Assembly (NCBI RefSeq): GCF_058153355.1
Contig: NZ_CM177019.1
Direction: 5' to 3' (one strand)
DNA length: 64,000 bases
A model generated the notes under the pieces. The model made no database searches, was not told the origin of the DNA, and was given only the letters and a program-made list of their open reading frames with translations. This document shows positions 4,696 to 9,454 of this stretch, piece after piece. Position numbers and translations under genes: made by a program. Positions within the stretch are counted from its first letter, which is position 1. Each line of letters starts with the position of its first letter.

Positions 4696-6764
<2,069 letters not shown>

Positions 6765-6772
6765 ATAAAACA

Positions 6773-6801
6773 GGAGGCGAAGGTGCCTCCCGTTTTATTT
6801 T
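6773..6801 (+). terminator. Intrinsic terminator of ompR-envZ
   Basis: ggaggcgaaggtgcctcc hairpin followed by cgttttatttt, 9 nt after the envZ stop. Confidence 0.8.
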
Positions 6802-6927
6802 GTGCACTCAGTATCTACTGAATGAATACGGTTTCAGACATCGGCACCATACGAAGTAAAGTGTACTGTAAGCTGATTGCAGGCTAGCGTATCCTGATTA
6901 GTAAAAGCACACTAAAGGAATAGCTTG

Positions 6928-8211
6928 ATGCAACTTACCAACGAAGAACAAGTACAGATTGCTCGTATAAAAGAAAAAATCCCACGCATTGCCGCACTGG
7001 ATCCTGAATGTAAGTTATTCGGTTCTGAAGGTTGGAAATATCAATGGCCGAAGCCTGCCAGCGAGGCGGAAATAGCTTCCTGGGAGAAAAAACATAGCGT
7101 CACTTTGCCACGGGAATATCGAATTTTTCTTCGCTATATCGCTAATGGCGGTCCGGCACATGCCTACGGTCTTGAATCTTTAGGCGGTACAGATATTTAT
7201 GGCGATATAACAAAAGAAAGCCCTGTACCGCTTTATATGACGCAGCAGGATGTTGATGTGTTGAATGCAGGCCGTACAGAAGATGATGAAGAATATAGTT
7301 TTTTTGACGGCGCATTGACCATTCTCACCCTGGGATGTACTTATGATATTTGCCTGGTGGTGACGGGGCAGTATCGCGGAAGGTTAATGCTGACTGATGG
7401 TGATGAAGATTATCCGTTTGATTTTATATATGATAAAAATTTCCTCAACTGGTATGAACGCTGGCTGGACGATTTTATTGCTGGCATGAGTATGAAGGGT
7501 TTCGATAGAAGTTTGCCAGGAACGCAAATTCAACTGCGTGAGTGGTTTTTAACTGAGAAAATCCCGGATTTACGTAGATCCATTTTATTCTCGCTATGCC
7601 GTTTTCCACAGATAGAACCCGAAACATTTGCCCTTTGGGAACATGTTTGCCGCACAGAGAATGATAAAGAATTGTGTGAAGAGGCATTCATAAGATTACG
7701 CCAAAAAAAAGTTTCTTGTGCTGCAGATATTTTTCGACTCTATTTTACAATGCCAGATGAATTACGTGATATTGCTATTAAAGATCTCCGTTTTGCCTGT
7801 AGAGATAGTGTGGTGAATATTGAGGATTATATTCATTCACTGTTAATAATAATGCCTGAACTTGACGATGACACTCTATCCTCAGCTGTCTTTGCTGTAC
7901 GAGAAACAGAGTATAATAAATATGATACTTTTCTGCCGCTTCTCGAACGTATCACTGATGACCGTCAGCAAACATTATTGTGGGCGATGAGTAAGGCGCC
8001 TGATTTCAATGAAAGCCGAGGATTCGTTGAGTTGGTATTACCGCTTTTTGCATCATCAAAGATGGAGAATGTAAGGAAGGCTATTTTGTTGCTCATTGAA
8101 GTTAAAGATAATCGTATTCCACCATTGGTTGATGAAGCTGCAACTCGTTTCCCTGAACTGACCATTTTACGAGAAAACTACTATCTCAGGACGTGGGGAC
8201 ATAAGCCATAA
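6928..8211 (+). CDS. Hypothetical protein with N-terminal SUKH/SMI1-KNR4-like domain and C-terminal alpha-helical (HEAT-like) repeat region; first gene of the AT-rich island
   Basis: Long ORF (427 aa from the ATG; the track starts 3 nt upstream at TTG). RBS aaggaa lies 7 nt upstream of the ATG. Motif SEAEIASWEKKHSVTLPREYRIFLRYIANGG resembles the SMI1/KNR4 (SUKH-1) signature. The C-terminal part, e.g. ENVRKAILLLIEVKDNRIPPLVDEA, looks HEAT-like. Not a K-12 gene that I recognise. Confidence 0.8.
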   Translation: MQLTNEEQVQIARIKEKIPRIAALDPECKLFGSEGWKYQWPKPASEAEIASWEKKHSVTLPREYRIFLRYIANGGPAHAYGLESLGGTDIYGDITKESPVPLYMTQQDVDVLNAGRTEDDEEYSFFDGALTILTLGCTYDICLVVTGQYRGRLMLTDGDEDYPFDFIYDKNFLNWYERWLDDFIAGMSMKGFDRSLPGTQIQLREWFLTEKIPDLRRSILFSLCRFPQIEPETFALWEHVCRTENDKELCEEAFIRLRQKKVSCAADIFRLYFTMPDELRDIAIKDLRFACRDSVVNIEDYIHSLLIIMPELDDDTLSSAVFAVRETEYNKYDTFLPLLERITDDRQQTLLWAMSKAPDFNESRGFVELVLPLFASSKMENVRKAILLLIEVKDNRIPPLVDEAATRFPELTILRENYYLRTWGHKP

Positions 8212-8248
8212 ATTAATGGCTCAGAAATGATCTAACGCGGAGAGAAAT

Positions 8249-8779
8249 ATGATCAGGGAACATATTCAGCAAGCGATAAATAATAGGTTAGCATTTGATG
8301 GCCCATTCAATGTTGTTCCTGAACCTGCAAGCACTGCGTTTGATAGCCGGATCCCGACATTGAAAAACGGTGTCTGGCAGAAGGCCAGCCCTATGTTGCA
8401 GGCGCGTTTTGCACATTGTGGACGTTGGTTAAGCGCTACACATGGAAGCTGGCTAAGTATAAGTGACATGGAAACGCTTTGGCAGGAACACATAGAAGAT
8501 ACGTTTCTTGATGAAATCAAAATGAATGCTGTAGCTTCAAGTGATAATTGGGATAACCATGCCTTGGGACTATTTCGTTCTCATCGCCTGTCACTTTTTG
8601 CCGGTAGTGATTACATTTATGAAATGGTTTTTCTCCTTTGGCTAGATAGTACCGTTGAGCCAGAGGTCTGGGTTTATGACTGCAATGGGGAATCACGTTA
8701 TAAAGATCTTAATGATTACCTGAATGCATATATTAATGATGACGTAAGCGCCTGTGAGCGCTCCTGGCGAGTAGAATGA
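8249..8779 (+). CDS. Hypothetical small soluble Trp-rich protein (island gene 2)
   Basis: 176-aa ORF with GGAGAG RBS 5 nt upstream, 37 bp after gene 1. No TM segment. No family recognised with confidence; the C-terminal VWVYDCNGESRYKDLNDYLNAYIND weakly recalls SUKH-type immunity folds. Confidence 0.75.
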   Translation: MIREHIQQAINNRLAFDGPFNVVPEPASTAFDSRIPTLKNGVWQKASPMLQARFAHCGRWLSATHGSWLSISDMETLWQEHIEDTFLDEIKMNAVASSDNWDNHALGLFRSHRLSLFAGSDYIYEMVFLLWLDSTVEPEVWVYDCNGESRYKDLNDYLNAYINDDVSACERSWRVE

Positions 8780-9402
8780 ATAGCCCCCCTTGCCCCTTTG
8801 ATCCACAAACCGCACATTACCTCGGTACAGTGCAAATCCACTACACCTCAACCACCTTCAACGCTGCCGTTAAGCATTATACCTATCACATTAAAAAGCG
8901 TTTTAAAGGGTTTAAATGGGGAATTGGTACCGCTGGCTTATTGGCTATATTGCCCATGATCCCACAATGGTTGAAACCTTCTCATGACTTTAAACTCAAC
9001 GCAATCAGTACGTTAATTCTTCTATTAATGTTGCCACTCCTCTTATCAATGTTCCTGTTAATCAGCAGAAGAATTAACGATTTTAAGTCAAAAACAAAGC
9101 AAGTTACTTTTACGAAACCCGTGCGTTATGCGTTTTATTTCGAGGGGATTGTTTTTTATGAATCTCATCAGCAGGGCATACTTCGCTGGGAAGATTTTTA
9201 TAGCATTGACTATGAAGAAGATTATTTGTGGCTTTTTCTGCATTTACCGAAGAGTTTTCCCAGAGAAGCGACGAAAGCGTTTTGCGATATTTTCATTCCC
9301 GCCAGCGCGATAAAAGCGCAGCCTGAACTGGATACGTTTTTTCGTGAAACACGCCACTATCTGGATTATCTGTTTGTCCCGTTTAATTCTGACAGAAAAT
9401 AA
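8776..9402 (+). CDS. Hypothetical inner-membrane protein (2 predicted TM helices) with C-terminal soluble domain (island gene 3)
   Basis: 208-aa ORF whose ATG overlaps the gene 2 stop (ATGA). Hydrophobic stretches WGIGTAGLLAILPMIPQWL (aa 48-66) and AISTLILLLMLPLLLSMFLLI (aa 76-96). The C-terminal ~110 aa are possibly YcxB-like/bacterial PH-like (unverified). Confidence 0.75.
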   Translation: MNSPPCPFDPQTAHYLGTVQIHYTSTTFNAAVKHYTYHIKKRFKGFKWGIGTAGLLAILPMIPQWLKPSHDFKLNAISTLILLLMLPLLLSMFLLISRRINDFKSKTKQVTFTKPVRYAFYFEGIVFYESHQQGILRWEDFYSIDYEEDYLWLFLHLPKSFPREATKAFCDIFIPASAIKAQPELDTFFRETRHYLDYLFVPFNSDRK

Positions 9403-9403
9403 A

Positions 9404-9437
9404 AAATCCCCCGTATCTGGTGAAACGGGGGATTTCG
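9404..9437. terminator. Intrinsic terminator shared by island gene 3 (+) and pck (-)
   Basis: aaaaaatcccccgt...acgggggatttcg hairpin with an A-run on one side giving a T-run on the minus strand; sits between the gene 3 stop (9402) and the pck stop (9455). Confidence 0.75.
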
Positions 9438-9454
9438 TCGCTTAACTTATCGGA

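Follow-up and report, generated by a model that had tools for sequence, protein, structure and literature searches.

In a 64,000-nucleotide stretch of an Escherichia coli chromosome (contig NZ_CM177019.1 of RefSeq assembly GCF_058153355.1; this whole stretch is referred to as the window), an islet of three genes lies between envZ and pckA, and the last of them (gene 3, positions 8776-9402) is the subject of this analysis. The gene is real and encodes a small YcxB-family inner-membrane protein of predicted topology, which carries the label 'hypothetical protein' in RefSeq. Arguing by association with its neighbors, we tentatively propose that this product serves, without enzymatic activity and tethered to the membrane, as an immunity or adaptor protein in an islet of orphan immunity genes. 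Judging from this context, gene 3 is more likely to encode a protective protein than a killing effector, since the other two genes of the islet look like immunity genes against toxins of rival bacteria. The hypothesis offered is that of protection during interbacterial competition, not of phage defense. The YcxB family is large and is present in many bacterial phyla, with no function reported, and the fast-evolving branch described here is a constant member of an orphan-immunity islet. What is new is a divergent member of a known, uncharacterized family within a known kind of islet. If the proposed role is true, it would be the first function for at least one branch of the YcxB family; if gene 3 encodes only a bystander membrane protein, the finding is an ordinary one.

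Predicted topology and fold of the gene 3 protein

The 208-amino-acid (aa) translation product of the + strand open reading frame (ORF) at 8776-9402 is the protein quoted in the initial annotation of this DNA. The ATG of gene 3 overlaps the stop codon of gene 2 by 4 nt (ATGA, 8776-8779) and, from this arrangement of the sequence, its start is considered to be translationally coupled to gene 2. In the copy present in E. coli 2013C-4282 (L028 5066-5638), the start selected in RefSeq is an internal GTG (V19, resulting in 190 aa; window position 8830) and not the ATG at 8776. The longer form is favored because the residues FDPQTAHYLG, upstream of the V19 GTG, are conserved. The ORF was unbroken in all 19 E. 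coli carriers, across 97-100% of its length. Three database alleles (P0007, P0012, and P0016) have in common a frameshift after EGIVF by which a different sequence takes the place of the C-terminal domain, and therefore pseudogenized copies of gene 3 circulate.

Hydropathy analysis (Kyte-Doolittle, KD, with a 19-residue window) located two putative membrane helices in the protein. The initial annotation had described both of them as strongly hydrophobic, which was borne out for the second one (aa 77-97, KD 2.6) and slightly overstated for the first one (aa 48-66), of only moderate hydrophobicity (KD 1.25). Each of the 17 aligned relatives showed exactly two hydrophobic peaks at the same positions (1.25-2.75 and 1.9-2.9, respectively), with any third peak at or below 1.27, and the hydrophobic segments and the core motif persisted down to 20% identity. 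The net charge in these 17 relatives ranged from +2 to +7 before the first transmembrane (TM) segment and from 0 to +6 after the second, a region with a net charge of +4 in the window protein; the connecting loop was short and near neutral. Because the two conserved hydrophobic segments carry positive flanks, both termini are predicted to be cytoplasmic according to the positive-inside rule. Hydropathy, this rule, and an AlphaFold2 (AF2) model together point to a topology with the N- and C-termini in the cytoplasm.

The AF2 model was obtained with 12 family sequences as input (mean predicted local distance difference test score, pLDDT, 73.5; predicted template modeling score, pTM, 0.66). It consists of a strand (15-21), a helix (25-42), two long helices (44-66 and 76-108), five or six strands (116-175), and a C-terminal helix (183-199). 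According to the DSSP assignment on this model, the soluble domain is probably split by the TM hairpin, which would be inserted after strand 1: strand 15-21 can pair only with the C-terminal sheet, so the basic N-terminus would belong to the soluble domain. This N-terminus had been annotated as basic, as its composition confirms (6 K/R vs 1 D/E in aa 1-47), but it is not a mere tail, since strand 15-21 and helix 25-42 of the soluble domain come from it. The motifs YLGTVQIHY and AAVKHY..IKKRFK of the aa 15-42 region are kept throughout the close family. The modeled domain shows the seven-stranded-type beta-sandwich capped by a C-terminal helix that is characteristic of pleckstrin homology (PH)-like folds, and the whole protein has the architecture of the YcxB family (a short N-terminal region, a two-helix hairpin, and a beta-rich C-terminal domain in about 170-220 aa).

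Comparison of the model with AFDB50 using Foldseek resulted in 624 matches at E ≤ 1e-3, distributed among many phyla, and the top 50 were all annotated as YcxB family or YcxB-like. The best match, 98% identical, was an E. coli protein for which UniProt already uses the name 'YcxB family protein'; non-self matches reached E = 1e-8, with TM-scores of 0.55-0.64 in what is a model-vs-model comparison. The YcxB-like or bacterial PH (bPH)-like fold guessed in the initial annotation was correct, because Foldseek returned almost only YcxB-family proteins. In the profile search proposed there against YcxB-like and bPH models, the PF14317 profile aligned with aa 123-155 of the window protein with an i-Evalue of 1.9, and across 17 subfamily members it reached E ≤ 1e-3 in one and E ≤ 0.1 in five (best value, 6.2e-4). 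No match to bPH families (e.g., PF03703) was obtained in Pfam scans of the gene 3 protein and its 17 relatives. The Pfam search of gene 3 yielded solely sub-threshold YcxB and MASE8 matches, and nothing meaningful was found in NCBIfam, PHROGs, or PADLOC. Sequence searches of the PDB revealed no relative for the gene 3 family profile, gene 1, or gene 2. As assigned from the predicted structure, gene 3 encodes a divergent member of the YcxB family, whose membership is marginal at the sequence level. No enzymatic motif was recognized in the protein, no enzyme family of Pfam or NCBIfam matched it, and its structural neighbors are PH-fold binding modules.

Gene 3 resembles the YcxB family (PF14317; B. 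subtilis YcxB) in its size, N-terminal strand and helix, hairpin, beta-rich C-terminal domain, and final helix, but it is a sequence outlier, and its subfamily is tiny and nearly limited to Enterobacterales and Orbaceae. It also has in common with the bPH proteins YdbS/YdbT and DdE/DdF the combination of a two-TM hairpin and a PH-like domain. YdbS/DdE proteins, with two TM segments and a bacterial PH domain, have been implicated in the handling of, or resistance to, membrane-active bacteriocins (PMC8657885). However, the hairpin of the modeled gene 3 protein is inserted within the PH-like fold after strand 1, whereas in the bPH proteins it precedes the fold. Gene 3 differs further from them in its lack of a bPH Pfam match and in its location in a Gram-negative islet with no ABC transporter or bacteriocin genes.

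The islet and its SUKH genes

The gene order in the window is yhgF, greB, ompR, envZ, islet, pckA, and yhgE. The initial annotation had called the segment an island, a designation that agrees with its GC content (0.39-0.44 vs 0.52-0.58 in the flanks), with the nearly empty envZ-pck gap of E. coli K-12 (only about 75 bp), and with the presence of the three-gene islet in 18 out of 5426 complete E. coli genomes. In one further genome (the 19th), that of strain A30, only a fused form of gene 3 is present. Aligned with K-12, the window departs from it just past the envZ terminator and matches it again at the pckA stop. Regarding signs of mobile elements, neither an integrase nor flanking direct repeats were found at the islet.

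Gene 1 matched the Pfam families SMI1_KNR4 (E = 2.7e-6) and SUKH_6 (E = 3.4e-5) at aa 44-170. In RefSeq it is an 'SMI1/KNR4 family protein' starting at the ATG in window position 6928; the mechanical ORF begins at a TTG in 6925. Gene 2 had no Pfam match, and the Foldseek matches of its AF2 model were nearly all SMI1/KNR4 proteins. No PADLOC model and no NCBIfam match was obtained for either gene. In Pectobacterium parmentieri (CP003415; L015 2710-7525), an Hcp-VgrG-DcrB-Rhs locus contains a homolog of gene 2, 56% identical, 20 bp 3' of a PAAR-Rhs gene encoding 1423 aa. Going by this gene arrangement, the homolog occupies the canonical cognate-immunity position, directly 3' of the toxin gene; the C-terminal domain of the Rhs protein (~120 aa past the PFGLAG motif, L015 about 6610-6981) had no NCBIfam match. 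A second homolog was found in a Corticimicrobacter cluster of small genes that includes SUKH_6. These data place gene 2, annotated as 'hypothetical', in the SUKH superfamily, with a family member in an immunity position after an Rhs toxin gene.

The three islet genes appear to be co-transcribed, with a gap of 37 bp between genes 1 and 2 and one terminator, located after gene 3. On the + strand, a simple scan for promoters detected nothing resembling a sigma-70 site ahead of gene 1. No gene for a toxin, cyclase, nuclease, NTPase, or other sensor or enzyme was found in the islet, and no ORF above 858 aa exists in the 64-kb window. The islet fits the description of a polyimmunity locus and of orphan-immunity islets because its immunity-type genes are in tandem (SUKH, SUKH fold, and gene 3), SUKH is present, there is no toxin gene, and its contents vary between strains, with an empty site in K-12.

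Gene 3 relatives at the envZ-pckA site and in other genomes

A word-indexed search of 5.8 billion proteins retrieved 18 relatives of gene 3, from Escherichia, E. albertii, Salmonella, and other Enterobacteriaceae. A profile search of 1.84 billion cluster representatives gave 15 matches at E ≤ 1e-3, the distant ones belonging to Superficieibacter, Morganella, Orbaceae, and metagenomes, and only four loci were found in a genome-collection scan with a narrow alignment. The 72,556 plasmid and 50,697 phage records searched contained no homolog. As a rule, the distant relatives were stand-alone proteins of about 200-220 aa.

At the envZ-pckA site of other Escherichia and Salmonella, the YcxB-like gene was always the last one before pckA; in E. 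albertii, a RelE/helix-turn-helix (HTH) pair lies between both genes. The preceding genes varied: they included SUKH genes, CdiI_5 cassettes, and a HEAT-like domain that was either free or fused to YcxB at one or the other end. The window and E. albertii have in common SUKH-428, gene 2, and YcxB, and Escherichia sp. MOD1-EC7003 carries a HEAT-like gene (L019 about 4900-5323), a gene 2 homolog, and YcxB. In strain A30 (L001 5566-6606) and E. whittamii (L017 4966-6273), a single gene encodes a HEAT-like domain of ~140 aa N-terminal to YcxB, and the opposite order, with the HEAT-like domain at the C-terminus, was found in the YcxB-HEAT fusion of assembly GCA_917097915 (L008 6001-7098). In Salmonella enterica (L006 4306-6618), the HEAT-YcxB gene is split by a cassette between H14 and Y15. 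Overall, three lineages carry cassette insertions at the junction of HEAT and YcxB.

The Salmonella cassette contains CdiI_5 (170 aa), a 91-aa ORF, and an 80-aa CdiI_5 fragment, and is inserted exactly between FDPQTAH and YLGTVQ, with the CdiI_5-derived codons for MPFGLKPVMTQ forming a new N-terminus of the YcxB-like gene. In E. albertii CP117637, the RelE-like/HTH pair (L005 7101-7773) lies downstream of the YcxB-like gene, before pckA, and fimbrial usher remnants are present upstream of the islet; the pair and the remnants are further evidence of envZ-pckA being an insertion hot spot. In Escherichia and Salmonella, the envZ-pckA intergenic region can be described as a small hot spot at which immunity cassettes are swapped; a literature search on envZ/pckA as a hot spot turned up nothing.

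The HEAT-like domain belongs to a family of 45 proteins, Bacteroidota included, with the invariant residues HxxHQ, YTCS, KWFSH, and EMxYRL. Its matches to Pfam HEAT_2 were only faint, and it had no PDB relative. Its identification with the C-terminal half of gene 1 or with gene 2 was rejected (BLASTP E > 20, hhalign probability 0.1%).

In the Orbaceae bacterium ac157xtp (CP133583; L025 7-8660), a distant relative of gene 3 and a paralog of it bracket a tandem array of ten paralogs of ~250 aa, with no match in Pfam, NCBIfam, PADLOC, or PDB. The layout resembles that of a homogeneous polyimmunity array; since no family matched, the putative immunity nature of this array is read from the tandem arrangement of its paralogs.

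Evolution of gene 3

In comparison with its orthologs, gene 3 showed ratios of nonsynonymous to synonymous substitution rates (dN/dS) of 0.24-0.46. Within E. coli these values were 0.44-0.53, vs 0-0.01 for envZ and pckA in the same strains. The hairpin was the most variable region of the protein (44-80% aa identity) and the C-terminal domain the most conserved one (77-86%; dN/dS of 0.17 at dS 0.82). Being less conserved than the soluble domain, the hairpin looks like an anchor.

The dS of gene 3 with respect to Salmonella was 0.21, vs 0.50-0.79 for the flanks, which indicates lateral transfer after the two genera split. The dS with respect to Escherichia sp. MOD1 was 0.95, with flanks of 0.31-0.34, and therefore the MOD1 allele is older than the divergence of the hosts. 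Within E. coli (comparisons with L002, L027, and L028), gene 3 differed at 8-16 out of 627 nt (proportion of synonymous differences, pS, 0.023-0.046), and genes 1 and 2 at 2-6 positions per 531-1287 nt (pS 0-0.011). These counts, which are small, suggest that the SUKH cassettes upstream spread more recently than the YcxB-like gene. As estimated from these rates, gene 3 is under weak purifying selection and subject to lateral exchange, a pattern typical of conflict-related accessory genes.

A tentative role in immunity

In the mechanism that we propose, the hairpin, with both termini in the cytoplasm, would keep the split PH-like beta-sandwich at the cytoplasmic side of the membrane. The mode of action would be binding rather than killing, with the conserved cytoplasmic domain placed at the membrane. 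The gene 3 protein might neutralize an incoming interbacterial toxin (type VI, contact-dependent inhibition (CDI), or bacteriocin-like) while the toxin crosses the inner membrane or immediately afterward; as a second option, it might keep a soluble protein, e.g., the HEAT-like domain, anchored at the site of membrane entry. The immunity protein against a membrane-targeting toxin that the initial annotation had considered as its alternative is partly in line with this proposal: immunity fits the context better, albeit unproven, but nothing shows a membrane-targeting toxin, and no cognate toxin for gene 3 was found. The YcxB-like gene may in addition mark a recombination site for the swapping of immunity cassettes, as judged from the junction insertions in three lineages and the bracketing genes of Orbaceae. 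A broader extension, which we regard as speculative and rather doubtful, is that the YcxB fold, in which a membrane hairpin interrupts a PH-like domain, constitutes a previously unrecognized class of interbacterial immunity proteins or immunity scaffolds. Such proteins would act at the cytoplasmic face of the inner membrane, either intercepting toxins or holding HEAT-like/SUKH modules.

Several types of loci provide a framework for this proposal. The survey by Zhang et al. 2012 (PMC3482391) describes polyimmunity loci as strain-variable sets of tandem, co-transcribed immunity genes without a toxin, in which SUKH is the commonest type. The same survey includes HEAT repeats and 2-TM proteins (Imm-CdiI and Imm17) among the immunity types, and contains the proposal that 2-TM immunity proteins block uptake at the membrane. 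Additional terms of comparison are SAIDI-1 of S. Typhi, an orphan-immunity islet in Salmonella (PMC7400221), and, also for orphan immunity, the acquired interbacterial defense (AID) clusters (Ross et al. 2019, 10.1101/471110). The islet shares with these loci the tandem, probably co-transcribed immunity-type genes without a toxin gene, the strain variation, the presence of SUKH, the domain fusions, the AT richness, and the location in an enterobacterial chromosome. It differs from them in its very small size (3 genes), its site (envZ-pckA), and the lack of a recombinase. The HEAT-YcxB fusions of A30, E. whittamii, and GCA_917097915 resemble the 'polyimmunity proteins' of Zhang et al. 2012. Imm-CdiI (CdiI of EC93) and Imm17 are small inner-membrane hairpin proteins in toxin/immunity contexts, as gene 3 would be. 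However, these proteins contain little beyond two helices, whereas the conserved part of gene 3 is a soluble domain of ~140 aa, its helices are variable, and no homology between them was detected.

A number of observations weigh against a role of gene 3 in immunity. Three distant relatives are solitary among housekeeping genes (Superficieibacter, secF/GH43; Morganella, yciH/rnb; and a metagenomic contig, near abgT), and in the small sample of contexts inspected no toxin gene adjoined a gene 3 homolog. The homologs of the HEAT-like domain in Spirosoma and in a Bacteroidota-like metagenome-assembled genome had no toxin or immunity neighbors, in contexts that were uninformative. The association with immunity genes comes mostly from a single hot spot on the chromosomes of Escherichia and Salmonella and could therefore reflect a coincidental co-insertion. 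The dN/dS of about 0.4 also fits a plain relaxation of constraint. Finally, literature searches for 'YcxB' and 'PF14317' turned up no functional study, the wider family being without a reported function, and word searches in the 2012 survey of polymorphic-toxin immunity (PMC3482391) yielded neither YcxB nor a PH domain.

Alternative explanations

Small 2-TM proteins are common defense effectors, and the initial annotation had regarded gene 3 as a membrane-disrupting effector at the end of a defense operon. According to this explanation, genes 1 and 2 would sense infection, and the 2-TM protein would then disrupt the membrane in an abortive response against phages. The apparent co-transcription of the genes (37-bp gap, 4-nt overlap, and single terminator) and the low GC and strain variability of the islet are compatible with it, as is one weak PADLOC match of gene 3 to PycTM (E = 0.0057, aa 54-151). 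Nevertheless, this match was lost in an 83%-identical allele and in three other homologs. The identification of gene 3 as PycTM was rejected, with no match at E ≤ 0.1 for the A30 allele, P0019, P0021, and P0026, and with no cyclase. Like PycTM of Pycsar and the 2TM proteins of CBASS, gene 3 combines two TM helices and a small soluble domain, but it has no cyclase partner and has SUKH neighbors, its soluble domain is PH-like, and nothing in it marks nucleotide binding. In addition, genes 1 and 2 are of the SUKH immunity type, without a PADLOC match, and a member of the gene 2 family follows an Rhs toxin gene; the islet contains no cyclase, nuclease, NTPase, or other sensor; gene 3 is found alone or with entirely different partners; conservation of the protein is lowest in its TM hairpin; and homologs are absent from the phage and plasmid records searched. 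The effector claim was not sustained by these data, and we consider it improbable. Small hydrophobic proteins can be toxic, and a toxin-antitoxin-like pair, in which gene 3 would be a small membrane toxin restrained by gene 2, would be consistent with the 4-nt overlap of both genes. The gene 2 family, however, occurs without gene 3, beside Rhs toxin genes and in SUKH clusters, and some relatives of gene 3 lack gene 2 and either stand alone or are joined to the HEAT-like domain, which makes such a pair very unlikely indeed.

More weight has to be given to an explanation in which gene 3 encodes a general YcxB membrane protein (involved, for example, in envelope stress or in lipid/protein binding) without any role in conflict, as an older resident of the hot spot beside which immunity cassettes landed. 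The solitary location of distant relatives amid housekeeping genes, the large size and taxonomic breadth of a family with no known function (624 Foldseek matches), and the higher pS of gene 3 than of genes 1 and 2 in E. coli, which hints at an older presence at the locus in spite of the small counts, would be expected from such a bystander. We still regard this explanation as rather unlikely, in view of the rarity of the gene (19 out of 5426 E. coli genomes, and a subfamily of 15 matches at E ≤ 1e-3 among 1.84 billion representatives). Fast evolution, lateral exchange, and frequent frameshifts are unlike a housekeeping function, cassettes have been repeatedly inserted at or inside the gene, HEAT-like fusions are recurrent, and the Orbaceae copies bracket a ten-gene array of paralogs. 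Gene 3 could also be a decaying remnant, namely the C-terminal piece of an ancestral HEAT-YcxB gene that lost its function after cassette insertion. Fused HEAT-YcxB forms do exist at the same site, the Salmonella cassette clearly split one such gene, alleles P0007, P0012, and P0016 are frameshifted, and dN/dS is elevated. This possibility has a low probability: the ORF is intact in the 19 E. coli carriers, dN/dS is well under 1 (0.14-0.53; the soluble domain has 0.17 at dS 0.82), the hydrophobic segments and core motif survive at 20% identity, distant relatives are mostly stand-alone proteins of about 200-220 aa, and the gene 3 start is translationally coupled to gene 2. Membrane-tethered immunity or adaptor function is the reading that we retain, with the reservations given above.

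Feature coordinates and minor sequence elements

Table 1. Positions in the window of the envZ-pckA islet, its genes and flanking hairpins, and the regions of the gene 3 protein.
Feature	Position	Strand	Remarks
envZ terminator hairpin, left islet edge	6763..6800	.	16-nt inverted repeat; terminator-like sites on both strands
Low-GC accessory islet, 2.65 kb	6798..9452	.	Between envZ terminator and pckA stop codon; boundaries approximate
Islet gene 1	6928..8211	+	SUKH (SMI1/KNR4) domain, plus C-terminal half of about 230 aa
Islet gene 2	8249..8779	+	Stand-alone SUKH-fold protein; AF2 pLDDT 91.8, Foldseek
Islet gene 3	8776..9402	+	208-aa YcxB-like inner-membrane protein; AF2, Foldseek, dN/dS
N-terminal piece of split PH-like domain (predicted): strand 1 and helix, aa 15-42	8818..8901	+	DSSP on model: E15-21, H25-42
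First membrane helix (predicted), aa 48-66	8917..8973	+	KD 1.25, moderate in window allele; model helix 44-66
Second membrane helix (predicted), aa 77-97	9004..9066	+	KD 2.6, strong; followed by basic stretch SRRINDFKSKTK; model helix 76-108
Beta-rich remainder of PH-like domain and C-terminal helix (predicted), aa 98-208	9067..9399	+	Best-conserved region (EGIVFYESHQQGILRW.DFY, IFIP)
Hairpin between gene 3 and convergent pckA	9404..9435	.	Arms of 14 nt, 93% complementary

Both ends of the islet are flanked by hairpins (Table 1). The envZ terminator hairpin is also kept in K-12 and in strain A30. The hairpin at 9404-9435 had a folding energy of -20.3 kcal/mol (z -4.2), and none of 200 shuffled sequences folded as well; it is present in strain A30 and absent from K-12, and is probably a bidirectional terminator for gene 3 and pckA. 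Within gene 3, a perfect 13-nt inverted repeat (9011-9023 / 9067-9079; CGTTAATTCTTCT / AGAAGAATTAACG) brackets the region encoding the second membrane helix, and is probably a chance match within AT-rich sequence.

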